Virus record (IMG/VR): IMGVR_UViG_3300001567_000262
Location: 32,001-96,000 of that record
DNA length: 64,000 bases
DNA from: a virus
Strand: one strand, 5' to 3'
Of the stretch, positions 9,592 to 62,272 are shown in pieces (the first letter of the stretch is position 1; each line of letters starts with the position of its first letter). A program made the position numbers and the translations under genes. The notes below the pieces were generated by a model. It searched no databases, was not told where the DNA came from, and saw only the letters and a list, made by a program, of their open reading frames with translations.

Positions 9592-9603
9592 GCAGATAAT
9601 AAA

Positions 9604-9898: not shown

Positions 9899-9922
9899 GC
9901 AAAAAAAAGGAGGCATACATTC

Positions 9923-12643: not shown

Positions 12644-12652
12644 GGAGCATCC

Positions 12653-14202: not shown

Positions 14203-14220
14203 CGAAAGGAAGAACAACTC

Positions 14221-42316: not shown

Positions 42317-43363
42317 TCAGATCAGTTCATACCAAGTGCCGCGTCCTGTGCCGCGCCGGCGCAGGTGTCCTGATTCCACCAGCTTTCGAAGATGCACTTT
42401 GATGGTATTCCGGTTTGCACCGATGATTTTCTCGGCGGCAGCGATTGTGACTCGACCGTGCTCGCGGGCTATCTCGACAAGCTGCTCAGACAGCGGCGGC
42501 AGCGCGGCGATAAGTTTTTCCCGTTCCACCTTTTTCCGAAGCATGTTTTTCTGCGCAATCATGCACTCCAGAAAAAACTCCAGCCATTCGTGAAGTTGCG
42601 ATTCATCCACATCGAGTGTGGACTGCGCCCGCCGCAGCGCTCTGTAATATCCGTCTTTGTTGTCTTCAATAACTCGTTCGAAAGAACTGTACGGCACATA
42701 AGAATAACCGGCCCGGAGCAGCAGTAACGTTGTGAGCGCGCGGGAAAGCCGCCCGTTGCCGTCCTGGAACGGATGTATCGCGAGAAAACGGACCACGAAG
42801 ACAGCTATCACAAGCAGCGGGTGCTGTGCGCTGTCGTCGAGAGCTTCCCCCGCCCATTTCACAAGGGTTTCCATCAGTCGCGGCGTGTCGAAAGGCGATG
42901 CGGTCTGAAAAATCACACCCAGGCTTTTTCCATTTTCATCGAAAGCTTCCACATGGTTCGGCAGCTTTTTGTAGTTGCCCCGGTGACGTTCGTCTTTCTG
43001 GGAATGTTTCAGCAGGATGCCGTGGAACTGCTTGATCTGGTTTTGCGTCAGCGGAATCGCCCGCCAGGAATCGAAAATCATTTCCATCAATTCCGCATAC
43101 CCGGCGACCTCCTGCTCGTCGCGCGAACGGAATGAAAAAACCTGAATCCCAGCCAGAAGCCGTTCGATTTCCGCATCCGTGAGCCTGACGCCCTCTATTC
43201 TCGTTGATGATCCGATGGATTCGATAGTGGCGATCTTTTTAAGCGCCGTCAGCCGGTCGGGCGCAATATTACCCAACGCCTGCCAGCGTCCCTTGAACTC
43301 GTCGATCTCGGCAATAAGGCGCAGAATTTTCTGTGTAATTTTCAGTTTTGCCATGAAATCCAT
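42317..43363 (-). CDS. Class II Fic protein with N-terminal inhibitory helix and C-terminal HTH
   Basis: Canonical HPFQDGNGRLSR, inhibitory STRIEG [(S/T)xxxE(G/N)], C-terminal winged HTH (GTGRGTWY). Confidence 0.92.
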   Translation of the reverse strand: MDFMAKLKITQKILRLIAEIDEFKGRWQALGNIAPDRLTALKKIATIESIGSSTRIEGVRLTDAEIERLLAGIQVFSFRSRDEQEVAGYAELMEMIFDSWRAIPLTQNQIKQFHGILLKHSQKDERHRGNYKKLPNHVEAFDENGKSLGVIFQTASPFDTPRLMETLVKWAGEALDDSAQHPLLVIAVFVVRFLAIHPFQDGNGRLSRALTTLLLLRAGYSYVPYSSFERVIEDNKDGYYRALRRAQSTLDVDESQLHEWLEFFLECMIAQKNMLRKKVEREKLIAALPPLSEQLVEIAREHGRVTIAAAEKIIGANRNTIKVHLRKLVESGHLRRRGTGRGTWYELI

Positions 43364-43449: not shown

Positions 43450-44133
43450 TTAATCCGTCAATGGTCCGCTGTAACCGCAGACGCCGGTGCGGGGTGAATT
43501 CACGATGGGAAGGAACATATCTTCATCGCATTCATGCTTTTCGGCGCAGGTGGCGCACAGACAGCCTTTTCCCTCATAAACACACTCGCTGCAAATCCGC
43601 ACTGCCGGTTTGCCGCAGACATCGCATGGAATTACAGGCGGTTCGTTACGGGCGAGCAGGTGGACACCTTTTCCGGGTGAGGCGCCTGCATAAGCGGAGA
43701 TGACTTTCAAGACAAGCTGGGTTGTTGTACCAAAGTCGTAATCGTGAGAAAATTTCATTCCGGGTTCCAGAACTTTGCCGATGGCAACGGCCATGCTGTG
43801 GTCGCCCATGGACTTGTCAGGCTGGGAATAATACTCCATTCCATCGATCTTAAAAACACTCAAATGCCCGCAACACTCGAGCCAGATATCCCGGAGAAAT
43901 CCGTCGAACGCTTTGAGCGTCGTGGAGGCTGGCACGTCAACATGGAGCCAGTACATTGGGCCGCCGTGGGCTTCTACGAGAATGTGGTATATCTCAGACC
44001 GTGGCGCCCCCGCGCCGCCGGATTCCGCTGCGCACTTTTCACGGACGCATTTTTCAATATGCCTGGTCATCGCGTTTTTCTCGACAACCTCGCCGCACTT
44101 TTCACATTTCCCCTGAGACGTTTTTCTTGCCAT
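43450..44133 (-). CDS. pRiA4b ORF-3-like protein with Zn-finger ends
   Basis: LRDIWLECCGHLSVF, YDFGTT; terminal CxxC clusters; C-terminal NSPRTGVCGY. Confidence 0.75.
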   Translation of the reverse strand: MARKTSQGKCEKCGEVVEKNAMTRHIEKCVREKCAAESGGAGAPRSEIYHILVEAHGGPMYWLHVDVPASTTLKAFDGFLRDIWLECCGHLSVFKIDGMEYYSQPDKSMGDHSMAVAIGKVLEPGMKFSHDYDFGTTTQLVLKVISAYAGASPGKGVHLLARNEPPVIPCDVCGKPAVRICSECVYEGKGCLCATCAEKHECDEDMFLPIVNSPRTGVCGYSGPLTD

Positions 44134-44174
44134 GAGCGCCTCCTGATGAGAATTCTTCTTTCTCAGTTACTGAT

Positions 44175-44951
44175 TTAAAAACCCGATATTTCCCACTGTA
44201 CGGTATCCAGCAATGCCAGTGAATTTTCGTATTCAATCCTATTCAGAAATACAAATCTGGTCATGCTTTCATCTATATTGGCCGAGAACATCAGAAAACT
44301 GTGAATATGACCTGCAAAAACAAATCGCGGCTTCATTCTGCGCACGAGCTGATACAACGGCTCACATCCGAGATTTCTCTTGATTTGGCGATCCAAAACG
44401 GAGGGATCGGGCAAAACACTATCCCTTTCAATAAAGGGAGCCAGGTTTTCGACCGAAGGCCATTCATGGAAAAAGAGCATGTCTATCTCTTTCTCCGATT
44501 CAAACGCTTTCAAATCGTTCGAGGTTAAGTGGTTGTACTTTGCCTTGCCGATCCTGTCGTAATCTTTGGGCGAGTAGTTTCCTGACACCCATCCCATTCG
44601 CATGCCGTTCTCTTCGCAAACCCCTGATCTGCCGAGGTAGTAGAGGTTTCTTATGATCTCACTTTTTCCTTCGTACTCCGACAGCCAACTGTTGTTCTCG
44701 TGATTTCCACCAATGAAGTATGTCTTTCTGGGCACTTTCTGGTCTGTATAATACTTACAGAAGTCACCCGTCTTCCGATGCCTTGCGGGCACATGTATAT
44801 TTTTCAAATCTCGTTCGTCTCTTACTGCTTGAAAATCGCCAAGTTGAACGACCAGATCGACATTGATGCCTTTTTCCTTCTCAATAAACGACACCCGGTC
44901 AAACATACAGTCAAGGCTTCCGTGAATGTCTCCCGCGATTGCTATGATCAT
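44175..44951 (-). CDS. Metallophosphoesterase resembling RNA lariat debranching enzyme Dbr1
   Basis: GDIHG, GDFQAVRDERDL...VP.RHR...F.KYY, FIGGNHE, NLYYLGRSGV, HEWP, LGCEP...MKPRFVFAGHIH. Start moved to ATG 44951. Confidence 0.75.
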   Translation of the reverse strand: MIIAIAGDIHGSLDCMFDRVSFIEKEKGINVDLVVQLGDFQAVRDERDLKNIHVPARHRKTGDFCKYYTDQKVPRKTYFIGGNHENNSWLSEYEGKSEIIRNLYYLGRSGVCEENGMRMGWVSGNYSPKDYDRIGKAKYNHLTSNDLKAFESEKEIDMLFFHEWPSVENLAPFIERDSVLPDPSVLDRQIKRNLGCEPLYQLVRRMKPRFVFAGHIHSFLMFSANIDESMTRFVFLNRIEYENSLALLDTVQWEISGF

Positions 44952-45127
44952 GTGATTTATTCCACGGCAATTATCGCATCGAGGTTGCAGTATCTGGTCT
45001 TGTAGCTTTTGCCGGCGGCAGTTGTTTCCAAAATGGAAATAACTGAATCCTTTAAATGAAAGGTTGAACCCCTGTGGCCAATAAAACAGCTTTTCCAACA
45101 CCACGCATTAGTTCCCCTACACGTTCC

Positions 45128-47182
45128 TTACCCCATGCCCATCGCCATGATGGCAGCCTTGGTGGGGCTGTCGTAGAACTGCCATTGGATGGCGGTGAGG
45201 ACTGAATCGGGGACTTCCGCGAGGTCCCGCTTATTCTCGCTCGGAATGAGAATGCGTTTCGCTCCGGATTCCACGGCCAACTGCATGCGCTCAGGCATGG
45301 CATTCACCTTTAGTAGCATGCCCTGAACACTCATCTCACCGAGCACTACGGTTCTATCCTGAACCGGTTTCGCAAGAATCGCGGAAACTATCGAAACGAA
45401 AAAAGCCACCGCCGTTTCAGCGCCTTCCTTGGCTTGGTTCAGGTTGATGGCCTGGATGGAAAAATCATATCCTTTCAAATCACGGTCAATCCCCAGATTC
45501 TTTATATTCGCCTTCAGGTATGCGTCAGCGGTTTTGATGGCCTCTTTCATTTTACTGGAGAGATTTCCGAGCGGAATTATTCGCCCCGAACCAGGATTCA
45601 TCTGTGCCTGTAATAAAAACAAAGCGAGCCGATTATCACTCATGTCTGTACCTATCGTATAAACGCTGCCCGGCGCGAGATTCCCTTCAGTGATCAGAGT
45701 GCCGCCGCCCATTTCCGGGAGCGTCACAAATGTCTCCTGTCCGGTCTCCTTGTGAGTGTATGAGAAGTTTGTATCCCAATACTCGATCCCGCCCATTTTC
45801 TTAAGCTGCTCTTTTACCCGCCTGCGCATCTCCATCGCAATTGCGATGTATTCTTCCATTTCTTCGTCCGTAACTTCACCATCCGGATGGAGCAACTTTA
45901 TCAGTCCGGATACGATCTTTCTTACGGCTTTCTGGTCGCGGCCACCGAGATGATTCCCGAATCTGAAATGCCGCTCCGCATAATCTGCATAGCTGTTTTT
46001 TCTTATTTCTCGGAACACTTCGGCAATGTAGTCTGTGACGACGCCGAAATGATTAGTGTACATTTCATCGCGGGTTTTCTGGAACTCCCAGCCGGGAACA
46101 TAAGAATGAATGCGGTCGTAGAAAGCCGTGTCCATTTCTTTCGGCATGGGATAGAAAAGGTTCGATGTGCGCACAATGGTCTCAATATCCCCATCAATGT
46201 TACCCACAAAGACAATCGAACCTTCCGCGGTTATGATGTCCTTGCCGCGGCTGAATGTGCCGTCCTCCATGTATCCTTTCATGATGTTGATGCCGCTTTT
46301 ATCAGAAAAACCGATGCCCGCCGCTTCGTCGAAAGCGACAACATCCCAAAGACAAACCAAGCCCCTTTGCCCGGAAGACAAATTCACGAACATCTGGGCA
46401 GTTGTTGTCTGCCCTCCGGAAACCAAATGGCAGTATGGACTCATCTGCTGGTACACAAAGCTTTTCCCCGTCCCGCGCGGGCCTAGTTCCACCATGTTGA
46501 AGTTTTTCTCGACAAAAGGAATCAGTCTTAACATGCAGTGCAGTTTGCGGCGTTTTGTGTAATAGGGATGGTTCGGTTCGTATCCCATCGAGCGCATCAT
46601 AAGGTCCAGCCACTGGTCTCGGGTGAACTTTTTTCTTCCTTCAATGAACTTCTCAATATTCCGGCTCGAAAGTTGAATCGGCCTGATGCTTTCGACAAAA
46701 AACGGACGGTTCTGTCCTTTGAAAATAAATGTCTCGTCATATTTCAGAACGACTTCCGCCCAAATCCCACCCATCAGCAGGCGGTCATGATTCTTTATTT
46801 CGCTTTCGTCTATGTTAATATAATCGAGATTCAGATTGGACAGATTCGCCCAGTATTTATCATGCGTTTCGACGAGCTTCACGGATATTTTATCTATGAT
46901 TTCATAAGTAGTATGCTGCTTGATTGCCGACTTGATTGCCTCTCGCTCATCGGGTTTCACATATTTGCTCGCCAGCGTCTCCCTAACGAACTCCAGCCCC
47001 TCGTTGATCGTGTCGTCATCGGTCGAGGCGCAATATTTCCCCAACAGAAATTCAATCACGAACGCCGGGACTCCGAAAGAGCTCCGCATCCTTCGCAGAA
47101 GGTCTTTCCGAACGACGAGGCCGGGAAAAACCTCAGTCGCAAGATGGTCCAAGTCGTCCAGAACTATTGGTTGATCTGTCAT
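45128..47182 (-). CDS. brxL: BREX Lon-like AAA+ protein
   Basis: FVEKNFNMVELGPRGTGKS, VVAFDE, MEDGTFSRG; C-terminal Lon-like domain without the usual PSAG serine; follows pglZ. Confidence 0.92.
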   Translation of the reverse strand: MTDQPIVLDDLDHLATEVFPGLVVRKDLLRRMRSSFGVPAFVIEFLLGKYCASTDDDTINEGLEFVRETLASKYVKPDEREAIKSAIKQHTTYEIIDKISVKLVETHDKYWANLSNLNLDYINIDESEIKNHDRLLMGGIWAEVVLKYDETFIFKGQNRPFFVESIRPIQLSSRNIEKFIEGRKKFTRDQWLDLMMRSMGYEPNHPYYTKRRKLHCMLRLIPFVEKNFNMVELGPRGTGKSFVYQQMSPYCHLVSGGQTTTAQMFVNLSSGQRGLVCLWDVVAFDEAAGIGFSDKSGINIMKGYMEDGTFSRGKDIITAEGSIVFVGNIDGDIETIVRTSNLFYPMPKEMDTAFYDRIHSYVPGWEFQKTRDEMYTNHFGVVTDYIAEVFREIRKNSYADYAERHFRFGNHLGGRDQKAVRKIVSGLIKLLHPDGEVTDEEMEEYIAIAMEMRRRVKEQLKKMGGIEYWDTNFSYTHKETGQETFVTLPEMGGGTLITEGNLAPGSVYTIGTDMSDNRLALFLLQAQMNPGSGRIIPLGNLSSKMKEAIKTADAYLKANIKNLGIDRDLKGYDFSIQAINLNQAKEGAETAVAFFVSIVSAILAKPVQDRTVVLGEMSVQGMLLKVNAMPERMQLAVESGAKRILIPSENKRDLAEVPDSVLTAIQWQFYDSPTKAAIMAMGMG

Positions 47183-47197: not shown

Positions 47198-49771
47198 TTA
47201 CATTTCTCTTCCAACCGTTAATTTAATACCACCGGGTGGAAACTGCTCCGATGTTTCAATATCACGTATCTCCAATTCCAGCAGTTCGCCCTTTTTGAAT
47301 GATAAAGCTGTATGAAAGAAAAGAGTCACGTTTATTTCATTATCCTGAGCTTCGAGGCGCGCCTCTTTCGGCCCGCTGGCAAGTACAGATGATTTTTCTC
47401 CCGATTCGCCGGTGCGCAATATGTCAATTGCCAGCATCCGTCCGGTCTCCACAAAAAGTGCCATCTGCCCCGCGCCGACTGACGATTTCGGCCTGAGCGT
47501 AACCTTTGCGGATGTCCGCATCAGTTCGAATGCCGGCAGCACCACTTCCACTCCGATGCGTTTTTCAAAAGTCTGTATTTTTGAAATCAGATGCGGGATG
47601 ATAATCTCCTGAAGCGCGGCGCCACCGTGAGAGAACGACTTTTCCGTTTTGAAAAACGACAGGCCCGGGGGAACCGCAATCCACACTTTCTCGTCCCACC
47701 GGCACGGGAAGGAAACAAGCGGCACATCCGCCCCGGCGGGAATCAGCGCGAACCTTTCCTTCAGAACATGACACCATTCCTTTTTACACTCGACTTCGGG
47801 AGGCAGCTTTTCCTCGTCCAGAAGAATGAACCCATGGTCCGTTATCAAATGAACTTCCGGGTAACCCCACTGGTGCAATTTGTGAATCAGTAGAACCAGT
47901 CGTTTCACCTCAAGGCCGACATGGCGAACCAGATTGTCCGCGCTGCCGTGCCCGATATTGTCCAGTTCCTCATGCCCGAACACTACGAGAAGGTCTTTTA
48001 TACCAGATGGTTTCGCAGCCGTGTTCTCTAGGTCTTCAATATCCCGGCAGTCCGCTCCAAATTCAGTCAATAATGATTTTCTGTTTTCAACTGCTGATGT
48101 GTCTTTTCCCTTCAACTTCGGATGAATGCTGTTGTTTTTTATTTCCAAGGACACGGCTGCTCCCTTCTGCGGGAGTAGCGCCGTCATCCCAACGGGCGTA
48201 ACCGTAGGCAACGCGGCTTGCAATGCTTCGATCTCGACATCCTGTCCGAGCAGCATTTCCTTTATTGCATGAGCGCAGTCGTAACGGAGAGCGTCTACGA
48301 TAACGACGGCCCGCTTCCCTCCAGCCGTCCAGATTTTCTCCTCAAGCCGGTCGGTGACATAAGGAATGCCCTCGATATCAGGAGTAGCCTGTCCAGAAAA
48401 TCTTTCAAAGAATCGCTGGTTCAGCAGATTCACATAAGACGCATAAGCGCGGTCGGCGACCTTGCTTATCGTCGGCATCGAACGCTCCATGGCTTCGAAT
48501 CGCAATTTAAGATGCTGCTTGTCCACGAGGGGAGCCTGTTGTATATACAATAAGGCAAACTCAGCGGCGGTATTTCTTTTTTCGATTTCACTCTCTGCTT
48601 TTCCGCAAACCTCAATAAAGCAATCCAGCGCGCCAAGGAGCGACCAAGCGCCAATGGGCGCATTGCTCGCTTTGCTGAATTCCGCTTCCCGGGCTATCCG
48701 TTCCCGATTACGCGCAAAAAATTCCTTCAGAGCGGATATCTTGTCGGCGGCTTCATTGAACGCATCCAGCGTTTTTTGCCAGCGGAGCGATACCAGATGC
48801 GGCAGCCCGAAAGAAACGCCATGTTTATCCGCCGCCCATGCCGAAAGATTGATGTTCGGCTCAACCTCTCTTATCCATCTGTCCCAAGCGGGCCTGCTGT
48901 TTGAATCCCTTAGCCACCGCTGGAGCAGTTGGATGTGATGATCGCGCAGTGCCTGCGCTGGGAGCCGGTTGAGAAATGGGTAATCGGCGGGTTCTCCATA
49001 TCCGATGTAAGTTTCTGTAAGCGCCATAATTTCCACGATGCCGCGAATCCATGCCGCTGGGTCGCCGCCCGCCGCGCCATATCCGTATCGTTCCCGTACC
49101 ATATCGAGGAATTCACCAGACAGGGCTTTTTCATCAAGTGATTGCCACGTCATCTCCGGTGAAACTGCCATGTCCAGAATCGTCTGATCCATGTCACCGA
49201 CGAGACGCGACTGCGCCAGTTCTGGCGTCAGTACGGCGCTCCAGAAATCTTGCGGTCTTTCAATAAACTTTGCCGTATATTTTGCCAGAATGGCATCCGC
49301 GCCGCCGTCGGCGAGTTTTCGTTGGTCCGATTGATTTTCCGGCAGGTTCACACCGGCGAGGCGCAGGAATTTGAAAAGCGTCGGCTTCTTGCCGTCTATG
49401 CGCCACGTCGTGCCGCAGTATTTGTATTCCTCGAGCAGTTCCAGATGATGTGCGCCGTTCTCATCAGGCGAGTCGAGACGTTCTTCGGAGAGCGGCATAT
49501 AAAAAACATAGCGGCGTTTTTTTCGTTGTTTTTCAGAAAGCTGTGCAAGATCGGCAAACACAGAGTGCTTGAGCCAAATCTGGCCCCGCTGTTGTTCCGG
49601 GTCGTATTCAAGGAGAATGAAAGGAGGCGACTTCATCTCGAAAAGGCATTTTCTCAATGCAGGCAAAAGCCGCGCGAATTCTTTTTTCTCATCAAACCAC
49701 AGGCACACTTGCGCTCGTTTCTCATATTGGAATCGCTGGGTGAATTGGCCGATGAGCGCTTCGAGAATCAT
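47198..49771 (-). CDS. pglZ: BREX PglZ alkaline-phosphatase-superfamily protein
   Basis: VVIVDALRYD, LPTVTPVGM, ITDHGF, FSHGG motifs; operon position. Confidence 0.92.
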   Translation of the reverse strand: MILEALIGQFTQRFQYEKRAQVCLWFDEKKEFARLLPALRKCLFEMKSPPFILLEYDPEQQRGQIWLKHSVFADLAQLSEKQRKKRRYVFYMPLSEERLDSPDENGAHHLELLEEYKYCGTTWRIDGKKPTLFKFLRLAGVNLPENQSDQRKLADGGADAILAKYTAKFIERPQDFWSAVLTPELAQSRLVGDMDQTILDMAVSPEMTWQSLDEKALSGEFLDMVRERYGYGAAGGDPAAWIRGIVEIMALTETYIGYGEPADYPFLNRLPAQALRDHHIQLLQRWLRDSNSRPAWDRWIREVEPNINLSAWAADKHGVSFGLPHLVSLRWQKTLDAFNEAADKISALKEFFARNRERIAREAEFSKASNAPIGAWSLLGALDCFIEVCGKAESEIEKRNTAAEFALLYIQQAPLVDKQHLKLRFEAMERSMPTISKVADRAYASYVNLLNQRFFERFSGQATPDIEGIPYVTDRLEEKIWTAGGKRAVVIVDALRYDCAHAIKEMLLGQDVEIEALQAALPTVTPVGMTALLPQKGAAVSLEIKNNSIHPKLKGKDTSAVENRKSLLTEFGADCRDIEDLENTAAKPSGIKDLLVVFGHEELDNIGHGSADNLVRHVGLEVKRLVLLIHKLHQWGYPEVHLITDHGFILLDEEKLPPEVECKKEWCHVLKERFALIPAGADVPLVSFPCRWDEKVWIAVPPGLSFFKTEKSFSHGGAALQEIIIPHLISKIQTFEKRIGVEVVLPAFELMRTSAKVTLRPKSSVGAGQMALFVETGRMLAIDILRTGESGEKSSVLASGPKEARLEAQDNEINVTLFFHTALSFKKGELLELEIRDIETSEQFPPGGIKLTVGREM

Positions 49772-51664
49772 TCATACCACCTTTGCGATGCGAAGCACTC
49801 CGGCCTTCTGGAGAGGTTCGATGTTCACTTTGACGCCGTCGTTGATGTCGGGGTCCCAGCCTTTGGGTCGTTCCTTCGGCGATTTCCAAGGCGTCAGGAT
49901 GCGGAAATCTTTGTCCCCGCCTTCCTTGCCCTCGCGGCGGCCTTCCTGTACCGCTTCGAGCAATCGGTCGAGTTCTTGTGTCTCTTCGAGCCTTGCCTGC
50001 CAATCAATGCGGTCCGCCTCCCTGTTTTCTTTTGCCGCCATCGCGGCCTCGCGCCGCATCAAATCAATCGCGTCCCGCAGATAGCTGCCCCGCAACTTCG
50101 CGAGTCGGTTTGCATCGAACTTGTGATAGTGAACCAGCGCCCCGAACGCCGCTTCGCCTTTGTTCTGCCTGCTCGCGATGTGCCATATTATCGGGCGATT
50201 CTTGTATAAAGAAGCGTGATATTCGAAATACACTTCTTCCAGCCATTGCCGGATGCTCTCCACGGATTTGTATCCCTTTACCCTGTTCTTGAGTTCATTG
50301 ACGATCTCGATTTCAACCTGATTTATGTCGCGTCCGAGAAACAGTAACGCAAGTTCTTTATGAACTCGGTCTATCAGTGCGGTTTCGCCGGATACTGCCA
50401 TGAACGGCACGATGCCGTCTTCGTCTTCATCTACCACGCGCTTGACGATATACGATAACAGCCGCCACACGTGTTCCATGCGTTTCTGTTCCGCACTCTT
50501 TCCTTCCATCTGCGGCCAGATCAGTTCCGGCGGCTGCGTTCCCATGATCTCTTCGATCTCTGCTCGCTTTTTGTCCGGGATGCCATACAGATGATACGCA
50601 TCATCGTTCAGTTCAGCATAAAGTTTCTGAATTCTTAAATCCTCGGCGCTCTCTAACTCTAAGAGCTTATCGAGTCTTTCCGGTATACACATTCCACTTT
50701 CAATAATGCTCTCTCTCAGTATCCAAGTCTTATCAAAATGTGTCGAGATTTCGTTTCCGTTATCCCAAGCGGATTTTGCGTCGAAGATAAGTTTTGCTCT
50801 ATTCTCAATACTCTCTCGTTTGTTTGCTGAGGGTTTCGGAATAGGAACTTTTTTTATCATTCCAACTTCGTATTTACCAAATGTTGAAAAGAAGCCCAGC
50901 ATGAAAAGAAAAATATGGCTCGAAAAAATCCCGAGCAAAAAGAATTGATCTGATTCGTTCAATGGGAAAAATGAGTGCCCTACATGTCCATGAATCCCGG
51001 TTCCGGGCAGTATTCTTGGGCTAAAACCTCGTTGTGAGCGGTATGACCAAGTCAGTCCAGGTTTGAAATAATGTTCAAGACTTGGCAAAGCATTTCCTGA
51101 AGCTTTTAGAGCATCTCTATTCTCTGGTCGCCAATCAATTACCAAATCAATATCTGAGTAAAACCTACAAAACTCTCCACCTTTTGCGAATGAAACCCAA
51201 CCTGTATTTTGCACAACTTCCCAATACTGTCTTACCCATTTCGGATCGTCTCCTGTCGCTTTTCCCTGTCTCGCAAAACCCCAAGTTGGATCAGAAGCGG
51301 GATGTTCTCTAAAAATGTGTGATACAAGTGCAATACGACGATAAGAGAGTGGCGATCCTTCTATTGATAAGAAGTCGCGGCGTGCTACATCGAAACGTAC
51401 TTTTTCTGCGTCATTTCTTATAGCTTGTACAAACATATTATTACGACGATCAGATTGTTTTTTTGCTGGTTTATAGCGTTCCACATCGAAGAAAGCAGCC
51501 TTCTCGCCCTCCGTAACAACATAATATGCCCGCTCGGCCTGTTCCGGTGTTGTTTCGATGCCCTCTCGTGCCTGTGTAGCCTGAATGGTGGAAACCATAA
51601 GTTTCCGTCGCAGGTCAGGATCGGCAAGGATAGCTTTTATGTTGACTCTTTTATTCTTCGCCAA
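49772..51664 (-). CDS. pglX: PglX C-terminal half (target-recognition region) with a fused N-terminal VbhA-like antitoxin segment
   Basis: FAKGGEFCRFY, YFKPGLTWS, RPIIWH, DINDGVKVNI are PglX C-terminal motifs. The first ~54 aa contain TQAREG. Same reading frame as the N-terminal half. Confidence 0.8.
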   Translation of the reverse strand: MAKNKRVNIKAILADPDLRRKLMVSTIQATQAREGIETTPEQAERAYYVVTEGEKAAFFDVERYKPAKKQSDRRNNMFVQAIRNDAEKVRFDVARRDFLSIEGSPLSYRRIALVSHIFREHPASDPTWGFARQGKATGDDPKWVRQYWEVVQNTGWVSFAKGGEFCRFYSDIDLVIDWRPENRDALKASGNALPSLEHYFKPGLTWSYRSQRGFSPRILPGTGIHGHVGHSFFPLNESDQFFLLGIFSSHIFLFMLGFFSTFGKYEVGMIKKVPIPKPSANKRESIENRAKLIFDAKSAWDNGNEISTHFDKTWILRESIIESGMCIPERLDKLLELESAEDLRIQKLYAELNDDAYHLYGIPDKKRAEIEEIMGTQPPELIWPQMEGKSAEQKRMEHVWRLLSYIVKRVVDEDEDGIVPFMAVSGETALIDRVHKELALLFLGRDINQVEIEIVNELKNRVKGYKSVESIRQWLEEVYFEYHASLYKNRPIIWHIASRQNKGEAAFGALVHYHKFDANRLAKLRGSYLRDAIDLMRREAAMAAKENREADRIDWQARLEETQELDRLLEAVQEGRREGKEGGDKDFRILTPWKSPKERPKGWDPDINDGVKVNIEPLQKAGVLRIAKVV

Positions 51665-51665
51665 G

Positions 51666-52520
51666 TTAAGATGTCTCCCAGCTTTCGATAGCTTCTTCTT
51701 CCCATGTTCTGATGAACGCGGCGAGCGGCGCGTAGTCTTTGTGGATGCGTCCTCTTTCGCAAGCTTCGTAATACGCCTCTTCGTCTCGTCGGCGATTGTA
51801 CTGATTCAGCGGCAACAGATCATTCTGCATGAGCAGCAGATTGCAGATAATGAACGCCGCCCGGCCATTGCCCTCGCGGAACGGATGGATGGCTATGAAT
51901 TCGTTCATTGCCTCGCTCACATAGTCATACAGTGCGCCATCATCATCTGAAATAAAAGGTGAGCGCGAAAGAACATTCGCTTCGTATTCCTCCATCAACG
52001 GTTGGATGCCACAGGAAGGAAGCGGCCATTTTGTCGGACCGTCGCCTTTATGCAGGTCCACCGTGCGCCATCCTCCGGCAAATGGATAAATGAACCCCAT
52101 TAGTTCGTGGTGTATCTGTCGGATGAGTTCTAATGTCAGTGGAGCCGGATCGGGTTTGTCGAGCAGATTTTCAACAAACTCCATCGCACGACGGACGCCC
52201 TCATCCTCTCGGCGATTTATCTCCTCGCGGTCGAGACACCCGGCATAATTGAGGCACAAGCCATCTCCGGTCTGAATCCATTCCCAGCTTCTTGCGTAGT
52301 TGTTCCACGGATTAACGACGATGGCGGGCGATTTCTGCTCGGGGAACAGACCACACAGTTCATCGAGACGCTTTTTTTCAAGTTTGCGCTGGGCAGGCGG
52401 GACCACATAGAACGATCCGGGTGCGGCGGCCTGATAGAACTCCTGCGCGTTGCGTCCCTTTCCGCTCTGGAAGCGGAAACCGTAGTCCTTTTCCTCCCAC
52501 CGCCAGCGAATGCCGCTCAT
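51666..52520 (-). CDS. Fic/Doc-family protein inserted within pglX
   Basis: HPFREGNGRAAF (last Arg replaced by Phe), LNYAGCLDREEINRRE class I-like N-terminal motif, IRQIHHELM..IYPFAGGWR; GGAGG RBS, ATGA overlap. Confidence 0.88.
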   Translation of the reverse strand: MSGIRWRWEEKDYGFRFQSGKGRNAQEFYQAAAPGSFYVVPPAQRKLEKKRLDELCGLFPEQKSPAIVVNPWNNYARSWEWIQTGDGLCLNYAGCLDREEINRREDEGVRRAMEFVENLLDKPDPAPLTLELIRQIHHELMGFIYPFAGGWRTVDLHKGDGPTKWPLPSCGIQPLMEEYEANVLSRSPFISDDDGALYDYVSEAMNEFIAIHPFREGNGRAAFIICNLLLMQNDLLPLNQYNRRRDEEAYYEACERGRIHKDYAPLAAFIRTWEEEAIESWETS

Positions 52521-54604
52521 ATCGTGCCTCCCTTGAGGACGATTGCGGCTGTTTCAACGGTTGCGCCGTCCAATATGCCGAAACCGAGATCGAGCATGAC
52601 CAGAAGCGGGTTGCGCTTGAGCAGTATTTCAGTTCGAAGCTTCTCGAACGTGGTTAGCGTGACGAAAGTTGATGACACCAGAGCTCCGACATAACCGTAT
52701 GGTTCTATAAGTTGTGTGGCGCGATCTATGAAGGCGGCATAAATGTCGTTATATGAAAGCGGATATAATTTCCTGATCAGTTCTCTTATCTTCGGCACGA
52801 AGCTGCCGTAAGGAGGATTCATGACGATTGCGTCGAAGCGATGAGAGAGGATGTCGAGGAGTTTGAGACCACGAGCGGTGTCTTCGTAAAAAAGGCGACT
52901 CGCCGGGTCTTTGCCGTTCGTGGTCGCGGCATTTTCCACGGCTGCTAACAATTCATTCTTCAATTCCTCTGCTTCCTGTTGCATCAGCCTGCGCTCGAGG
53001 ACAAGCTGCTCGGCGACGGCGCGGTCGCCCTCTGCGACGATGGATTCAAGGTCAAGCTGTTTCAGTTTTCTTTCATCGAACAGCTTTGTCATTCCCTTTG
53101 CGCGGCCTCGCTCCTCGATCCAGTCGTCGAGTACACGGGACACGCTCTCCGAGACTTGGACGAGTGCGCCGAGTTCTCCAGTGTACTGAAGGTTTTCCCA
53201 GAGCGTTTTAATGAGTCGTTCCTGAAGCTTCGAATCGCCGAATTTTTTATTGAGATTTTCGATTAGGTGCGTGAGTTGTTCCTGCCCGAGGTCAACTGTA
53301 TTCGCAACAACGAGGTTAGTGCGACGAACATGGACATCTTCAGGTGAAAAGCCGTGCTGGCGGGCCGATTCCTTTGCCGTCAGCAGCAGAGACAGAGTGG
53401 CGATTTGGATAGCACGGGGGTCTATGTCTATTCCAAATATATTGTTTTCGATAATTGCGGCCGGGATATCCTTTTTATTTTTCACGGACGGCTCGCTGGG
53501 CCAGCCTTCTTTTCCGGCGTTCTCGATTTCATCGAGGTACATTTGGTAAAACAATCCGAACGCGTATTGCCCGAAGTGCATAGTTCCGCATGCGGGATCA
53601 AGGAGAGCTATATCTCGCGCGAGTTTGAATGTTTCGATCCGGCCTTCCTCGGTGACACGCTGGTATCGGATTTTCTCGCCGGTACGCGGAACAAGATAGT
53701 CGGCAACGGGCTCGTCCGATACGCGTTCATCCGGTAGCGGTGGTGGACCTTGCGGCTTCAGAGATGAATCAGGATGCATCTGGAGCCAGAGACGGCCGAG
53801 AGTATTGTCCACCAGCGTTTTCACGACCCAAGACGGAGTATAGAACTGGTTGATAACGGAAAGCTCATAGGAACTCCGAGGGGTACCCTTGTTTTCATCG
53901 CGCACTTTCTTTTTCTCGTCGCGATTGAAAAACTGATAGACCCAGCCAAGAAAATCAACAGCCTTGAAAGCGTCTTCCGGCAACTCGCTGTTGAGCAAGC
54001 CGATGACTTTCACAAGGCAGGCATGGGTCGGCCAGACGCAGGCATATTCATGTTCGGGGTCGAAAAGGATGCGAATTTCCGTTGTGATATGGCGGAATGC
54101 GGCGGTGAGCGCATCTCGCAGGAGCGATTCTTCGGCGTCCTGTTCGTACTTGTATCGTTCGCCACCGGCTTCCCTGAAATCGCGCAGATATCGGGAACGC
54201 GCCTGATCTGATATCGGAGTGATTATTTCCGTCAGTTCACTTTCCGCGCCCGATTTCCCCGGCGTTGGGAGAAAAAGCAATTTGCGCGCTTCCATGCTTT
54301 TGAGTCCTACGAGGCGATTCAGCAGAGTGTATGTGAGTTCGCGGATAACATTGTCCCACCCGCGCTGTGGGGTGCCTTCCGCGAGAGTGTCGCGGTTAAG
54401 CAGAGCTTCCACGCGCTCCCGCACGGCTTTGTCTGCATCGGACAGAGGCATTTTATCGAGCGGCTGATGTTTCCCGTCCGGTCGCAGACCAAGGCGCCTT
54501 AGCTGCGCGGTGAAATCCGTCTCAAGTTCCTTGCGGAGCTTGGGAACCCAGGACTTGACCGCTTCCTTGTGAGTATCTGAAAGTGATTTACGTTCGATAT
54601 TCAC
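52517..54604 (-). CDS. pglX: PglX N-terminal half (adenine methyltransferase motifs I and IV)
   Basis: GWVYQFF, QFYTPSWVV, LLDPACGTMHF, FGIDID, VMNPPY; stops just after the ..VETAAIVLKG segment; GTGA overlap with brxC. Confidence 0.88.
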   Translation of the reverse strand: MNIERKSLSDTHKEAVKSWVPKLRKELETDFTAQLRRLGLRPDGKHQPLDKMPLSDADKAVRERVEALLNRDTLAEGTPQRGWDNVIRELTYTLLNRLVGLKSMEARKLLFLPTPGKSGAESELTEIITPISDQARSRYLRDFREAGGERYKYEQDAEESLLRDALTAAFRHITTEIRILFDPEHEYACVWPTHACLVKVIGLLNSELPEDAFKAVDFLGWVYQFFNRDEKKKVRDENKGTPRSSYELSVINQFYTPSWVVKTLVDNTLGRLWLQMHPDSSLKPQGPPPLPDERVSDEPVADYLVPRTGEKIRYQRVTEEGRIETFKLARDIALLDPACGTMHFGQYAFGLFYQMYLDEIENAGKEGWPSEPSVKNKKDIPAAIIENNIFGIDIDPRAIQIATLSLLLTAKESARQHGFSPEDVHVRRTNLVVANTVDLGQEQLTHLIENLNKKFGDSKLQERLIKTLWENLQYTGELGALVQVSESVSRVLDDWIEERGRAKGMTKLFDERKLKQLDLESIVAEGDRAVAEQLVLERRLMQQEAEELKNELLAAVENAATTNGKDPASRLFYEDTARGLKLLDILSHRFDAIVMNPPYGSFVPKIRELIRKLYPLSYNDIYAAFIDRATQLIEPYGYVGALVSSTFVTLTTFEKLRTEILLKRNPLLVMLDLGFGILDGATVETAAIVLKGGTI

Positions 54605-57600
54605 TTAATTACCACCGTGAATCCTTTTCGAATTCTCGTTTTGAGCTGCTCGCCGATGACGGAGAGTGTCTGATCCACATCGGCTTCGGTTTTCAGCCGT
54701 TTTCCCGCAAGTTCCTGAGACGGCTGCCAGTCGCAAACTTTTTCTGCTTCACCTGTCTTCGTGGGAGCGGCAAGGCCGATCAGTTCGGTTTCGACCTGGC
54801 CGCGATAACCGGGCAAAGCCATCAGAGTCTGGGCAAGAGAAGTCAGGCTACTCTTTGCGGCGGCAGCGAGAAGCGTTTCCGCTGAACTTAGAGGAATTTC
54901 CGGATAGTTGCACGGCCCGCCGGGACCGAAGACCTTTTCAAGGACGGCATCGCGGCTTTCAGCGGGGGCATTTTTGTAGGCACTCCCACCTTTTATCGTA
55001 TTTATAAGATTTTCAATCTCGGTCTGCACCTTTTTGTATGCATCTTTGTAAGCGCCCCGGTAAGCGCCAAGCGCAGTTTCGTACGCGGCCCTGTAATCCG
55101 GCCAGCGATCAACAACCGATTTGTCACCGATGATCGCATCCATATCCTTCAGCGCCTGTCCGAGTCTCGTGCTTTCGGGATTGTCGGCGGGAATCGGATG
55201 ATTTGCGGCAAGATTTGCGAGTTTGCGGGATGCGAAATAAGCCTGATGCCGGTTGTCGTCAAGGAAGGCGCGAATCGCGGACATGGCCTTCTGGAAGCTC
55301 TTCCATTCCGCGGCTCTCGACAGGAAGGCCGTCACCGCTTTTGTCGGGTCTTTGATCGTTACAGGTTCATCGAGCGCGGCGCCTGCATCCAATACGATGT
55401 CAGAAATGGGAATTCCCATTTCCGCTCTGCTTTTTGCATCCTGTAGGTCAGATTTTAGTTTTTCACCGAGTTTTCTTACGGCGGATGCGATTGCATTGCC
55501 GGACTCCGGGATGCCGTTCATTCCCAAGGCGATGAGTTCCTTGCTTGCCAGCTTAATCTGCTCCACGGAGAGACTGATTTCGGCCAGTCGGAACGTGACT
55601 TTCTTGAAAGTGTTTATTTTCTGGAAGTTGTCGTTCGTGCCTTTGTAATCGTAAACAGGGGTCGGCCCACCCGGAGATTGCTGCTCCATATAAACCGCAC
55701 CGGCCCTGAAACAGGCAGCGAGCACAATACGAAGAATTTCATCCGGCCAGCCGAACGGCGCGCGGGAAAAACCTTTGAATCCCTTACGGTCATTTGCATC
55801 CATGAGCGCGACGCCGGTGGGATCAATGTCTTCGTCTTCGAGGTCTTTCAGAACTTCGAGCACCTGAGCTACCAAATCTGACTGCTGCTGTAGATTTCCC
55901 TGAGAATCAAACAATCCCAGATCTGGCGCGACCTTATCGAGCGCGGTTGTCGCAGGGTTGAGAATGGCTTTGATGCTTTTATCAAAGTCATAAGATTTAT
56001 CGGCAATGCTGAACCGAGGATAAACATTTGGAATAACCGAAGTTAGCGCGGTTTGAACAGGCTCCTTGAAATCGGTGGCTCTTTCTAATTCATTTTCCAA
56101 GCCGCCGTAGTAAACCGTTCCTTTAAGAAATGCCTGTTCCAAATCCTTAACAAGCGATGTTTTCAGATCATCCCGTTCCTTGCGTTTTTCAGCAAGCGCA
56201 TCCTGCGTGGATTTCGAAGTATCCTCTGTGAATCGCTTATCTCCACACACTTTCACGAGGGCTTCATATCGTTTGAATCTCAGTTCGAGATTATCGGGGA
56301 CATCGGCAACCCACCATACCTTGCGCCCCTTAGCGCTGTCGGCCTGATTGCGCCGTTTGATTTCTTCGATCTCCTGTTTTCTGCCGGACATGAGCGGGCT
56401 GACGAAACAAACTTCGATTTCAGACCCGGTTTCAATTGCCTCGCCATCGAGATAAACACCATAGGAAAATGGAACTTTCGTTATGCCGTATGGAACCGTG
56501 AAATTCAGAAGTTTTTTCTTCGTTGTCAGTTCCATCTTGGTGATTTCCTGAGATGTTCTGCGGACGGCAGCGATACTGATGCTCTTCGAACCACCGGAAC
56601 GAACCATTTCCTGAATATACTGCTCGATAGTGCGCTCCTGTTCGTCCAGGTATTTCCATTCTCCGGTTGCTTCGTCGCGAGCTACATAACCCGCTTCCTG
56701 AAGCTTGCCCAATGTCTTTTCCACATTCTCTCGTAATTGCGGGATATCCGTTTTGAAATCGGTCACAAGCAACTTTGCAATCGTTTCGGAGATTCTTGGG
56801 ACCCATGGAACCCGCTGTAACAACCATAGCACTTTCAGCACTTTCGCCGGGTCAATCGGAGTTCCGGTCACGCGCTCATCAGATTCCCGAATAGACCGTA
56901 CACCCGCGGCGCCGAGATATTCTTGGGACAAAAGATCATTTTCAACAGCGTCGAATATCATGTCGAAGCTCACAACGGCGCCCACTTCGGAGTCTGCGAT
57001 TTCCTGCAAGGATGTCATGACGACGGAAATCATGGAGCGCACACCGCCGGACAGCCGGAAGCCGGACAATGCTTCGAAGATATCCTGAGAAAGCCGTATC
57101 TGGTGCGGCAGAAGCGGATAGCAATCGATGAACGCCCGTTCATCCACAGTGCCGAGAAATCTGCTTGCTTTCAGATCAGCAAGCTGTGAAATATATCCTT
57201 CATTGTCCAGATACAACTTTTTTAATTGCGGCTCTTGCGCCGGATATTTTTTTAGAATCCTCTCCGATACAACTTTATTGATTTCATCCGAAATGAGATG
57301 AGGCTTTAGTTCGAATCTCGCATTAAGGCGTCCGATAAGAGCCGGTTGGAAGTTTGTCCTGTCGACGACTTTTTCCAAGTCCTGCTGGCTGGTTACAAAT
57401 AGCCAGACTTTACCTTTCCCTTTGTTTCCTATCATTTCCGCGATACTGTTTAGCTCGCTGATTTTCTCGTTCGAGTCGCCGATAAATGTTCCCATTTCGT
57501 CGATTACGAAAATCAAGTGCTGAACTTTTCCGCCGGTTGTTTTTTGTGCATCAACCCATGAAACGAGTTCATCCGCGAGGCTCTCGGCTGTGAGCTTTGC

Positions 57601-58335
57601 GTGCCGGAACATGTCGTCTATCGCTTTTTTGGCGTCATTTCGGTCTTTATATTCAACCGGGTCCACATCAGGCATGATCTCGGCAAGACGACGGCGGACA
57701 GACATCAAATCATCGCGCCCCTCGGCGCTTTTCCATGGCACTCCATGCTTTGACTCATAGACTTTTTCGAGGGTTTCCAATAATCCCTTCTGGGCCATCT
57801 TTCTTTCAATACGAGCGACCACAAAATTTTCTGACAGTCCGATGCTTCTATAAAACTCGCCCAGTATTATTTCTCCGACAGAGTTCGGATTTGTCAGTGA
57901 TTGTCTGCTTCTTATTTCGAACGCAATGGTCTTTATCTGTGTGTTCTGTTTTATTTCGCCCAAACGCGCACGAATATTTTTACCTCGAGCTGTATCGGAT
58001 ATGTGTTTTGAAAAAAGATCAATGCACTTTTCGCCAGATGTGTCACCGATCTCGTCGTTTTGAAGCAAATATCCCAATACTTTTGAAAAATGGGATTTCC
58101 CTGAACCGAAAAAACCTGAAATCCAGATACCCATGACATCTCTGGACGTTCCTCCCAAACGAAGGGTTTCGCTGACCTGGGTAAATGTATCGACTATTCG
58201 TTTAAGCTCATCCTCAATTTTGTCGGTGACGACAAACTCCCGCATTTCAGTGGCCAAGGCCGCATCGTCATAGACCTTTACGACACCTTCCACCTTGACC
58301 CCGATATCCCTTTTGATTATTTCACGAATGGTCAT
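54601..58335 (-). CDS. brxC: BREX ATPase BrxC/PglY
   Basis: IWISGFFGSGKSHF Walker A, FVIDEMG Walker B, VTSQQ, YPLLPHQ; 1244 aa. Confidence 0.92.
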   Translation of the reverse strand: MTIREIIKRDIGVKVEGVVKVYDDAALATEMREFVVTDKIEDELKRIVDTFTQVSETLRLGGTSRDVMGIWISGFFGSGKSHFSKVLGYLLQNDEIGDTSGEKCIDLFSKHISDTARGKNIRARLGEIKQNTQIKTIAFEIRSRQSLTNPNSVGEIILGEFYRSIGLSENFVVARIERKMAQKGLLETLEKVYESKHGVPWKSAEGRDDLMSVRRRLAEIMPDVDPVEYKDRNDAKKAIDDMFRHAKLTAESLADELVSWVDAQKTTGGKVQHLIFVIDEMGTFIGDSNEKISELNSIAEMIGNKGKGKVWLFVTSQQDLEKVVDRTNFQPALIGRLNARFELKPHLISDEINKVVSERILKKYPAQEPQLKKLYLDNEGYISQLADLKASRFLGTVDERAFIDCYPLLPHQIRLSQDIFEALSGFRLSGGVRSMISVVMTSLQEIADSEVGAVVSFDMIFDAVENDLLSQEYLGAAGVRSIRESDERVTGTPIDPAKVLKVLWLLQRVPWVPRISETIAKLLVTDFKTDIPQLRENVEKTLGKLQEAGYVARDEATGEWKYLDEQERTIEQYIQEMVRSGGSKSISIAAVRRTSQEITKMELTTKKKLLNFTVPYGITKVPFSYGVYLDGEAIETGSEIEVCFVSPLMSGRKQEIEEIKRRNQADSAKGRKVWWVADVPDNLELRFKRYEALVKVCGDKRFTEDTSKSTQDALAEKRKERDDLKTSLVKDLEQAFLKGTVYYGGLENELERATDFKEPVQTALTSVIPNVYPRFSIADKSYDFDKSIKAILNPATTALDKVAPDLGLFDSQGNLQQQSDLVAQVLEVLKDLEDEDIDPTGVALMDANDRKGFKGFSRAPFGWPDEILRIVLAACFRAGAVYMEQQSPGGPTPVYDYKGTNDNFQKINTFKKVTFRLAEISLSVEQIKLASKELIALGMNGIPESGNAIASAVRKLGEKLKSDLQDAKSRAEMGIPISDIVLDAGAALDEPVTIKDPTKAVTAFLSRAAEWKSFQKAMSAIRAFLDDNRHQAYFASRKLANLAANHPIPADNPESTRLGQALKDMDAIIGDKSVVDRWPDYRAAYETALGAYRGAYKDAYKKVQTEIENLINTIKGGSAYKNAPAESRDAVLEKVFGPGGPCNYPEIPLSSAETLLAAAAKSSLTSLAQTLMALPGYRGQVETELIGLAAPTKTGEAEKVCDWQPSQELAGKRLKTEADVDQTLSVIGEQLKTRIRKGFTVVIK

Positions 58336-58370: not shown

Positions 58371-58910
58371 TTATCTCCAGAACAATTTCACGGAAAGGTA
58401 GTTCCCTCCATCGGCCTGCTTCATGAAATGGAGTTTCCCACCACGTTCTTCTCCAGGAAAAGATAAAGCGATTCTGCAATTCAGGTCTCGAAGTCCGCGC
58501 AAAACCTCACCAAATCGGACGAGTGGATACAACGATGAAGTTGAATACAGAATGATTGCGCATCGCGGTTTCTCCGATGCGATTTCTTCGATTCTTGATA
58601 TAAGAGCAGCTTCTATTCGCTTGGAAAGACCTTGTTTCATCCATACGTAGTCGTCGAATTCATAATCCTTTACATCTTCGAGTCCGTCTTCACCCACTGT
58701 CTCAAACAGGAAAGATGAAAGATCGAGAACGAAAAATGGAATGTCGCGCGTTTTGAGAGTAGGCAGGAAGGTATCATTTAAATATTCTCGGTAATCCAGT
58801 TCCTTGTCGGGCGGATATATCAGAATAATGGAATTATCAGTCTTAACGCCGCCGTTCTGCTTCAGAGGCTCGCTCAGAATTTGAAGAAGTTCGTCGAACA
58901 TTATCGGCAT
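58371..58910 (-). CDS. brxB: BREX BrxB (DUF1788)
   Basis: 179 aa, LIYPP...SLYPLVRFGEVL..L...LSFPGE; position between brxA and brxC. Confidence 0.8.
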   Translation of the reverse strand: MPIMFDELLQILSEPLKQNGGVKTDNSIILIYPPDKELDYREYLNDTFLPTLKTRDIPFFVLDLSSFLFETVGEDGLEDVKDYEFDDYVWMKQGLSKRIEAALISRIEEIASEKPRCAIILYSTSSLYPLVRFGEVLRGLRDLNCRIALSFPGEERGGKLHFMKQADGGNYLSVKLFWR

Positions 58911-58912: not shown

Positions 58913-59695
58913 TTATCTCTTGTCCCAGTCCATTTCTACGATGTCGCCTTGTATTCGGAATCTGAGTTCGCCCATACGGTTGAGTTCGCCCAGCGCGTCT
59001 ATTACTTCAATACCATCCAATGCCAGAAGTCGGAATGCTGTGGAGCGCAACATATCAAGCGGCGATGTCTGTAGGAGATTTAAAGCGCGCAAAATAAGTC
59101 TGATGGGAGCGCCATATAATGCCGGTCGAACGCTGACCTTCTTAAGTTTCCCGGTTGCGAGACCAAAATCTCTGATACTTGCCATATAATGCTGGACAAC
59201 TCTCAAAAAAGTCTCATGCGACCATTTTTCAATCTCAGGATGCTTCTTCAAAGACGCTTTAAGAAATGTTTTAACATCCTCAGTTCTTAGTTCGGAAGGA
59301 GATTGTTTCAGACGTGGGTAAAGCCATTCAGTGCCTAAATCGAATACCATACGGTCATTCAATGAAAAAAGGATGTATGCAGTCAGCCCTCGTTCTGGTT
59401 CTGATTTACAGAGTTGCCATTCATTCCAGAACATGGAAAATAATGGTTGATTGCAATCAAGAACGTATCGTGGCCTTAGTTCCTTCCATTGTTTTTCTCT
59501 GGCCGACGATGACGACCGCGAAAGCACATTTTTTTCGACTACCAATGCTCTGAAACCATCTGTTGAGAGGGGCGTCTCGGTTGATTCCAGAAGAATTCTC
59601 AAATCCGTGTACATGGCTGAACGCGCCGATAATCGTGATTGGTAAGGCCTTCTGCCGTCCAACGCCGGTATCGTTATTTGTACTGCGTTATTCAT
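58913..59695 (-). CDS. brxA: BREX BrxA (DUF1819)
   Basis: YQSRLS...KNVLSRSS...W.ELRPRY...DFGLATG pattern; first gene of the operon; start uncertain (ORF open from 59821). Confidence 0.75.
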   Translation of the reverse strand: MNNAVQITIPALDGRRPYQSRLSARSAMYTDLRILLESTETPLSTDGFRALVVEKNVLSRSSSSAREKQWKELRPRYVLDCNQPLFSMFWNEWQLCKSEPERGLTAYILFSLNDRMVFDLGTEWLYPRLKQSPSELRTEDVKTFLKASLKKHPEIEKWSHETFLRVVQHYMASIRDFGLATGKLKKVSVRPALYGAPIRLILRALNLLQTSPLDMLRSTAFRLLALDGIEVIDALGELNRMGELRFRIQGDIVEMDWDKR

Positions 59696-59891
59696 TTCTT
59701 TTTCTATTCCCATTGGCCCCAATGGGGATGTCGTTGAAAGGATTTTATTACAGTCAAAGGCGGTTAACCCCATATCGTTTTTGACATCCCCGTCATGTTT
59801 TCCTTTTCGAACTCTTTTCACTGCTCAAACAACAGTTGTCGAATTATACCATTCTTTGCCTATAATGTTGATCTTGATGGGCAATCTTGGC

Positions 59892-62255: not shown

Positions 62256-62272
62256 GTTCACCATTCCCTTTC

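Follow-up and report, generated by a model that had tools for sequence, protein, structure and literature searches.

The closest described relatives of the locus presented here are pairs of a Fic enzyme and a small inhibitor. In Yersinia pseudotuberculosis, antY is an open reading frame (ORF) downstream of, and convergent with, ficY; its product carries the motif S22TAIET27 and inhibits FicY in a dose-dependent manner, and FicY AMPylates Tyr106 of ParE, thereby blocking topoisomerase IV (Lu et al. 2020, PMC7479194). In VbhT/VbhA, Bep1/BiaA, and EcFicT/EcFicA, the inhibitory helix also comes from another polypeptide (PMC3667792; bioRxiv 10.1101/2020.06.29.167221; PMC5033356). The second point of comparison is the methyltransferase of type 1 bacteriophage exclusion (BREX) systems, PglX or BrxX, represented by the Salmonella (8C45) and Escherichia coli (9EWZ/8ZEK) proteins (PMC11341690, PMC11842806). 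Here, we describe a locus in which the two meet. In a stretch of 64,000 nucleotides (hereafter, the window)—bases 32001–96000 of the IMG/VR “provirus” record IMGVR_UViG_3300001567_000262, derived from a hydrocarbon metagenome—the pglX gene of a type 1 BREX operon is split in two by a Fic gene, and the second PglX chain begins with a predicted Fic inhibitor. On balance, we favor the view that the locus represents a conserved type 1 BREX subtype, with a FicY/AntY-type pair built into a naturally split methyltransferase and the Fic protein tethered to, and gated by, the N terminus of the second chain.

The operon is complete and lies on the minus strand, with the six core genes in the order brxA-brxB-brxC-pglX-pglZ-brxL (PADLOC and NCBIfam models). 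Instead of one PglX polypeptide of ~1,200 aa, two ORFs are present with the Fic gene between them. The first, pglX-N (52517..54604, minus strand; 695 aa), encodes the N-terminal helical domain and the methyltransferase domain (NCBIfam BREX_1_MTaseX, E 1e-108; Pfam Eco57I); fic follows (51666..52520, minus strand; 284 aa; Pfam Fic, E 1.5e-13; PADLOC PDC-S04, E 4e-33); and pglX-C (49772..51664, minus strand; 630 aa) supplies the end of the methyltransferase domain, the hinge, the target recognition domain (TRD), and the C-terminal domain (CTD), preceded by the putative inhibitor module. The junctions are tight. The brxC stop overlaps the GTG start of pglX-N, whose product ends in ..AIVLKGGTI*; the pglX-N stop and the Fic ATG overlap as ATGA; and the TTG start of pglX-C lies one base past the Fic TAA (2 nt beyond the last stop base). 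Both PglX halves share one frame (54604-51664 = 2940 = 3 x 980). An initial annotation made from the sequence alone had described a Fic gene splitting pglX in just this way, and the coordinates agree with it in every particular. Because Shine-Dalgarno-like GGAGG/GGGAG sequences precede the Fic and PglX-C starts by 6–9 nt, in the window as in relatives, we take pglX-N, fic, and pglX-C to be translationally coupled.

Apart from the cut, this PglX has the same domains, domain order, operon, and methyltransferase motifs as canonical type 1 PglX/BrxX. PglX-N covers positions 1–614 of the 1210-position BREX_1_MTaseX model, and residues 45–407 of PglX-C cover positions 608–982 (NCBIfam). The gamma-class m6A methyltransferase motifs LDPACGT and VMNPPYG are in PglX-N, aligned with the same motifs of 8c45; the chain aligns with 8c45 and 9ewz up to residue 609–610 and fits the PADLOC half-length PglX model PDLC02526 at 6–637 of 640. 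PglX-C aligns to 8c45 at 645–875 and 1014–1156, and the TRD region is its least-conserved part. In E. coli BrxX, the methyltransferase domain runs to residue 650, and the hinge loops leading to the TRD occupy 638–675 (PMC11842806); the cut at BrxX residue ~610 therefore falls ~30 residues ahead of the hinge. With the last ~35 residues of the methyltransferase domain on PglX-C, the two chains could plausibly interlock.

Does a pglX gene in two ORFs still yield a working methyltransferase? Its division is what one would expect of a gene simply interrupted by an insertion and left without function. We consider such a broken locus very improbable, because neither half is truncated, each is under purifying selection, and the two are coupled; the other BREX genes are all intact; the same layout recurs in hundreds of clusters; and split PglX with adjacent halves is common, to the point that PADLOC holds separate models for the halves. 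At three loci (L162, L163, and L166), the pglX halves are directly adjacent, overlap, and are cut at the same point, and other C-halves of ~600–720 aa proved numerous among 1.84 billion representatives searched; these start with MxxFFRL, at the very point where the PglX-C extension of the window ends. L162 and L166 thus share their cut point and translationally coupled halves with the locus described here and differ from it in lacking both Fic and the inhibitor module. Split PglX appears to be an ordinary, common, and apparently functional form of the protein, as the initial annotation had implied in suggesting a methyltransferase that reassembles from two chains.

Relatives carry diverse cargo between the halves or after PglX-C: a second PglX-C-like gene, a Y1-transposase-like gene, GmrSD with a class II Fic, TIR genes, and RelA_SpoT. 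At L167:1794-6178, a PglX-C-like gene of 736 aa separates the halves, so that PglX-N is followed by two tandem specificity halves, a RelA_SpoT gene, and pglZ. Between pglX-C and pglZ, L163:7839-10819 holds GmrSD and a class II Fic (Fic_N + Fic), and L165:2072-3144 holds two TIR-domain genes.

What precedes the PglX-like sequence of PglX-C? The BREX_1_MTaseX match begins at residue 45, and the first ~45–55 residues are therefore extra, close to the ~54 residues counted in the initial annotation. This extension (51500..51664, minus strand; residues 1 to ~55) contains TQAREG (residues 30–35; 51560..51577, minus strand), which fits the (S/T)xxxE(G/N) inhibitory signature. The match, already noticed in the initial annotation, is not a chance one: T30, Q31, A32, R33, E34, G35, and I36 are conserved in 97–100% of 117 homologues, and the segment is homologous to Fic inhibitors. 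In a conservation set selected on residues 1–60, that stretch is among the best conserved of PglX-C (87%, vs. 50–66% for residues 61–360). Judging from the boundaries of copies found in phages (see below), the autonomous module spans approximately residues 6–48.

Several lines of comparison tie the extension to AntY. Aligned with AntY-like small proteins in hhalign, it scored 95.3% (E 2e-8) over gapless columns 1–45 counted from both N termini, and a local profile–profile run against the same proteins gave 92%. A hidden Markov model (HMM) of the extension alone was run against every ORF in 160 loci collected around distant Fic genes; each of the eight first-round matches outside the family was a small ORF lying tail-to-tail with a Fic gene (E 0.002–0.84). 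After iteration, ~135 of the 160 Fic loci held such a small partner, with the signature NPYLRDP..R..L...SV.SSTAIE(G/T) and no RefSeq label beyond “hypothetical protein.” The two families are bridged by the PglX-C clade of L161, which reads NPYLRDPEKKKKVMSRAIATAQRQEGI and whose bridge sequence, NPYLRDPEKKKK..AQRQEGI, adjoins a Fic with the canonical motif. A PDB profile search of the extension returned three chains only, two of them the Fic regulator BiaA or a close relative (E 0.3–0.6), and the invariant Glu34 of PglX-C aligns on BiaA E33, a residue whose mutation to Gly relieves inhibition. An ESM Atlas look-up of the extension gave generic helical or sub-0.5 TM matches only. As in FicY-AntY, the inhibitor module directly follows the Fic gene, and the signature lies equally far from the N terminus (S22TAIET27 vs. 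T30QAREG35). By these profile comparisons, the PglX-C extension is an antitoxin-type Fic inhibitor module and an AntY-like homologue, and Glu34 is its predicted inhibitory glutamate. The initial annotation, in placing an antitoxin motif on PglX-C, was right in its core idea; the nearest family is AntY and not VbhA, which it had named.

Two further observations concern the FicY/AntY-like pairs themselves. We rejected the idea that they are usual residents of restriction-modification operons: among ten neighbors sampled, a few were defense-type genes (HsdM, a DNA methylase, HerA, and a ResIII helicase), and the rest were an integrase, housekeeping genes, and a second Fic. At L032:4844-6742, a FicY-like/AntY-like pair lies directly downstream of a GyrB/ParE-family gene, ParE being the target of FicY.

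How common is the combination of a split pglX, an embedded Fic gene, and a fused module? The extension (residues 1–60) is carried by 537 PglX-C clusters. All eight relatives with the extension that were checked have the order PglX-N/Fic/PglX-C, either within a BREX-1 operon (L001, L082, L083, and L161) or in partial loci (L081, L084, L085, and L165), and the slot is without Fic in all five split loci that lack the extension (L162, L163, L166, L167, and L168). The split pglX loci compared thus have both Fic and the extension (8/8) or neither (5/5), and the concern that the arrangement might be unique to this assembly falls away. At every such locus seen, the module forms the N terminus of PglX-C and is never free-standing; a free antitoxin gene in the slot between the pglX halves was not seen in the loci examined. 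Three clusters with <50% identity to one another all retain the fusion, as do hundreds of loci. On this comparative evidence, the layout is conserved and widespread and is not damage. The embedded Fic family itself has 721 matches of ~287 aa, the best 120 of which are all 59–67% identical, and occurs in Acidobacteriota, Schekmanbacteria, Chromatiales, and other Gammaproteobacteria. A few rare database proteins have Fic fused in frame to PglX-C, or PglX-N to Fic (P0242 and P0243, 915 and 914 aa; P0244, 1440 aa); they may be true fusions or frameshift errors.

The module also occurs outside BREX. When IMG/VR was scanned with the extension, four viral records proved to carry the BREX-type module alone, with no Fic domain in any of the four. 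In the first (L170, 3998-4201), it is a 67-aa ORF; the same protein is present on >20 contigs, and ORFs of this type sit within an array of small codirectional genes, beside a ddrB-ParB polyvalent protein (L174). In the second (L172, 3743-4156), a 137-aa protein is encoded in a CheckV-complete, 41.5-kb T7-like genome, between the terminase end and the single-subunit RNA polymerase (i.e., in the early region). The third (L173, 3854-4183) has a 109-aa protein, and in the fourth (L171, ~3980-4180), a 93-kb genome with terminal repeats, the module is a segment of a >2422-aa ORF (869->8135). In these copies, QAREGIETTREQAE.AY is retained, and divergence sets in precisely at the start of the PglX part; the BREX-type HMM matches them at E 1e-19 to 1e-23, and the AntY HMM does not. 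The extension had no match in GenBank phages, and plasmids yielded distant Fic genes only.

We infer that the phage copies are candidate antitoxin mimics, or counterdefense genes, and rare ones. T4 Dmd is reportedly a phage-encoded antitoxin mimic, and an orphan inhibitor of a host toxin in a phage is the pattern that the four viral records would fit; unlike Dmd, the candidates here are known from sequence and are few (four in IMG/VR, none in GenBank phages). Their existence lends circumstantial support to an antiphage role for the Fic protein. A further viral record (L169:3959-5923) has a PglX-C gene with the module on its own, next to a tyrosine integrase (6666-7772, minus strand), and no PglX-N, Fic, or PglZ was found within 4 kb upstream or ~2.3 kb downstream, where the locus ends. 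This lone PglX-C might serve as a decoy or a spare specificity subunit; it could also be a remnant.

Is the embedded Fic a conventional toxin? Its AlphaFold2 (AF2) model (predicted local distance difference test [pLDDT] 87) matches FICD, EfFic, VbhT, EcFicT, Bep1, and NmFic in Foldseek, with a probability of 1.0 to FICD, VbhT, EcFicT, and NmFic, and its fold superposes on those of VbhT, EcFicT, and Bep1. Within the active-site motif HPFREGNGRAAF (residues 212–223; 51852..51887, minus strand), family alignments show His212, Glu216, Asn218, Gly219, and Arg220 to be invariant. The second Arg of HxFx(D/E)GNGRxxR, however, is Phe (Phe223) in 118 of 120 family members, whereas 153 of 154 FicY-like relatives keep it. 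The Fic of the basal BREX clade, L161, still has the Arg, and the change to Phe therefore arose inside BREX. In the competent binding mode, the gamma-phosphate of ATP is held by a salt bridge from this Arg (Goepfert et al. 2013, PMC3667792), so its replacement makes the chemistry and toxicity of the embedded Fic uncertain. The complete HxFx(D/E)GNGRxxR motif being absent, the embedded Fic is not a canonical class I toxin. The N..G..D..E pattern that the initial annotation had called class I-like is present, and N91 and G94 are invariant; it marks only the start of the Fic core and need not be specific to class I. Relative to VbhT/VbhA, Bep1/BiaA, and EcFicT/EcFicA, then, the locus differs both in lacking the second motif Arg and in the placement of its inhibitor, since their antitoxin genes are upstream and free-standing.

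The Fic protein differs from FicY in a second respect. FicY has the full HPFxEGNGRxxR motif and lacks the extra, beta-rich N-terminal domain of ~90 aa (WRWEEKDFGFRF...; 52251..52520, minus strand) that is specific to the BREX-embedded clade; the Fic core is ~30% identical to FicY-like proteins, which align with it only from residue ~84. In this domain, W6, D12, G14, F15, and R16 are invariant in 121 sequences, and the AF2 model confidently places strands at 15–19, 26–30, and 36–40. No relatives of the domain were found in Pfam, the PDB, or the ESM Atlas (generic helical or sub-0.5 TM matches only). In a single-chain fold of the natural Fic–PglX-C fusion P0242 (57-row alignment), the module and the Fic N-terminal domain both had pLDDT <50. 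Invariant catalytic residues together with a clade-specific N-terminal domain point to specialization inside BREX: the Fic is clearly under selection, yet its donor, reaction, and toxicity are not transferable from FicY.

This altered active site is what gives weight to a different reading, in which the complex is a composite or regulatory enzyme. The Fic pocket would be completed in trans by Glu34, and perhaps Arg33, to form a de-AMPylase-type hydrolase or a transferase using another donor; its substrates would be components of BREX or proteins bound to DNA, and their modification would belong to the ordinary working of BREX. The glutamate equivalent to Glu34 is catalytic for deAMPylation in FICD and EfFic. 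In favor of this reading, the second Arg is lost with every other catalytic residue held invariant, a change that, with the Arg retained in L161, dates from within BREX; Arg33 is invariant in the BREX and phage lineage and is Ile or Val in AntY-like proteins; and tight cotranslation of the genes would fix the stoichiometry of the parts. The Arg-to-Phe change and Arg33 nevertheless amount to one evolutionary event and no real covariation, and the orphan phage modules fit the neutralization of a harmful enzyme better, even though they could also poison a composite one. We rate this reading as unlikely. Covariation between the lost Fic Arg and the Arg beside the partner Glu was examined as a candidate signal and set aside for the same reason, and also because Arg at position -2 occurs with canonical Fics.

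A more neutral explanation is that the Fic and its inhibitor are a selfish addiction cassette: a FicY/AntY-type pair landed in the slot between the pglX halves, its antitoxin became fused to PglX-C, and it now stabilizes the BREX island without any role against phage. FicY/AntY-like pairs are indeed mobile, lying beside integrases and in varied contexts; the slots between the halves and after PglX-C hold other cargo in relatives; and two large serine recombinases flank the island. Stable fusion to a large protein would be a poor design for postsegregational killing, however, and it has been kept in three clusters of <50% identity and hundreds of loci, with no free antitoxin gene seen in the slot. 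The Fic has moreover gained a clade-specific domain and an altered active site, and the orphan modules in phages would make little sense were the Fic never to act on phage. A pure addiction role is therefore, in our judgment, distinctly unlikely.

How might the parts work together in the guarded-methyltransferase subtype that we favor? PglX would be made from two chains that reassemble, with PglX-C bringing the last piece of the methyltransferase domain and the DNA-reading half. Fic would be translated together with both halves, and its inhibitor, no longer a free protein, would be the N-terminal ~50 residues of PglX-C. Most likely, the module would dock on the Fic active-site cleft and insert Glu34, which would tether Fic to the PglX complex and keep it in check as a three-protein PglX–Fic unit. 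Removal, unfolding, or a shift of the PglX-C N terminus would then free Fic as a second-line effector that damages the host or blocks replication; candidate triggers are phage anti-BREX proteins, loss of PglX-C, and DNA-driven jaw movement. By analogy with FicY only, the target could be topoisomerase IV or gyrase. A precedent for such wiring, already invoked in the initial annotation, is PrrC, an anticodon nuclease that is said to be latched to the EcoprrI type I restriction-modification enzyme and triggered by T4 Stp. Both would place a latent toxic enzyme, thought to be masked by a DNA-recognizing complex, in a restriction-modification-type operon; PrrC reportedly has no dedicated inhibitor domain on a restriction-modification subunit, whereas the putative latch here is a recognizable antitoxin domain.

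The DNA mimic named as a trigger in the initial annotation, Ocr, binds the TRD/CTD “lower jaw” of PglX/BrxX (PMC11842806, PMC11341690). That region is the PglX-C chain in the split system, and an Ocr tripwire is one possible trigger. In a bolder scenario, the specificity half would physically latch a rebuilt Fic: once PglX-C is attacked or displaced (e.g., by Ocr-like DNA mimics), Fic would fire and abort the infection, and the orphan phage modules would re-cap it, in a three-way arms race. Taken as a whole, we hold this scenario to be rather doubtful.

Several points weigh against the guarded-methyltransferase view. The BiaA matches (E 0.3–0.6) are by themselves below significance; when the HMM search was run in reverse, from AntY-like proteins to the window, PglX-C was not retrieved (E 8.9), and the best match fell on the class II Fic at 42317-43363, in its inhibitory motif; and neither the PglX-C extension nor the AntY-like ORFs are represented by a Pfam or NCBIfam model. 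The co-occurrence samples are small (8 and 5 loci). AntY is a free protein of ~50 aa encoded on the opposite strand, convergent with ficY, whereas the module here is codirectional with fic and fused to a 580-aa BREX protein. Finally, with Phe in the nucleotide pocket, canonical AMPylation—and hence the word “toxin”—cannot be assumed, and the glutamate may act other than by inhibiting.

Has such an arrangement been described before? We found no paper linking BREX PglX with Fic, and the words “Fic” and “split” are both absent from the main text of a 2026 survey of BREX diversity. The conserved Fic-in-split-pglX layout, with its fused AntY-like module and phage module copies, is thus undescribed in the literature we found. 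To our knowledge, how BREX stops phage is still unknown, and few defense systems show how a back-up toxin is wired to a primary sensor. Here, the putative wiring can be read from the sequence, as a known type of Fic inhibitor on the DNA-reading PglX chain, the one that Ocr binds; the result is a testable model of a guard built into a defense complex. The locus also offers a natural system for studying reassembly of PglX from two chains, along with a Fic whose nucleotide pocket is unusual. The orphan modules in phages are candidate antidefense genes of a new kind; should they work, they would demonstrate that the Fic indeed acts against phage.

The remaining core genes, all on the minus strand, are brxA (58913..59821; 302 aa; PADLOC BrxA, E 2e-18), brxB (58371..58910; 179 aa; PADLOC BrxB, E 6e-9), and brxC (54601..58335; 1244 aa; PADLOC BrxC, E 5e-129, full length) upstream of pglX-N and pglZ (47198..49771; 857 aa; PADLOC PglZ, E 2e-51) and brxL (45128..47182; 684 aa; PADLOC BrxL, E 1e-280) downstream of pglX-C. 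The large serine recombinases that flank the island (38408-41885 and 60678-62324) are on opposite strands, and the first is followed by two ParB/RepB-like genes; we regard the BREX island as a probable integrative mobile element. Positions 1-18263 of the window hold a phage tail module (tape-measure-like, baseplate J, and P2 gpI-like genes). Because the genes between this module and the island look cellular, the provirus boundary of the record may be too wide.

Other genes of potential interest surround the operon. Directly downstream of brxL and on the same strand, positions 43450-45104 (minus strand) encode a metallophosphoesterase (309 aa; PADLOC candidate PDC-S10) and a PRiA4_ORF3-like protein (227 aa), which are probably accessory genes of the island. 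A second Fic gene (42317-43363, minus strand; 348 aa) combines a canonical motif with an internal inhibitory motif of its own, SSTRIEG (class II), and its C-terminal region is DUF977-like; the same 133-kb record contains a third Fic domain, beyond the window. At 33322-37100 (minus strand), an overlapping pair of genes for a 773-aa HATPase_c_3 protein and a 486-aa calcineurin-like phosphoesterase looks like another two-gene, defense-type module.

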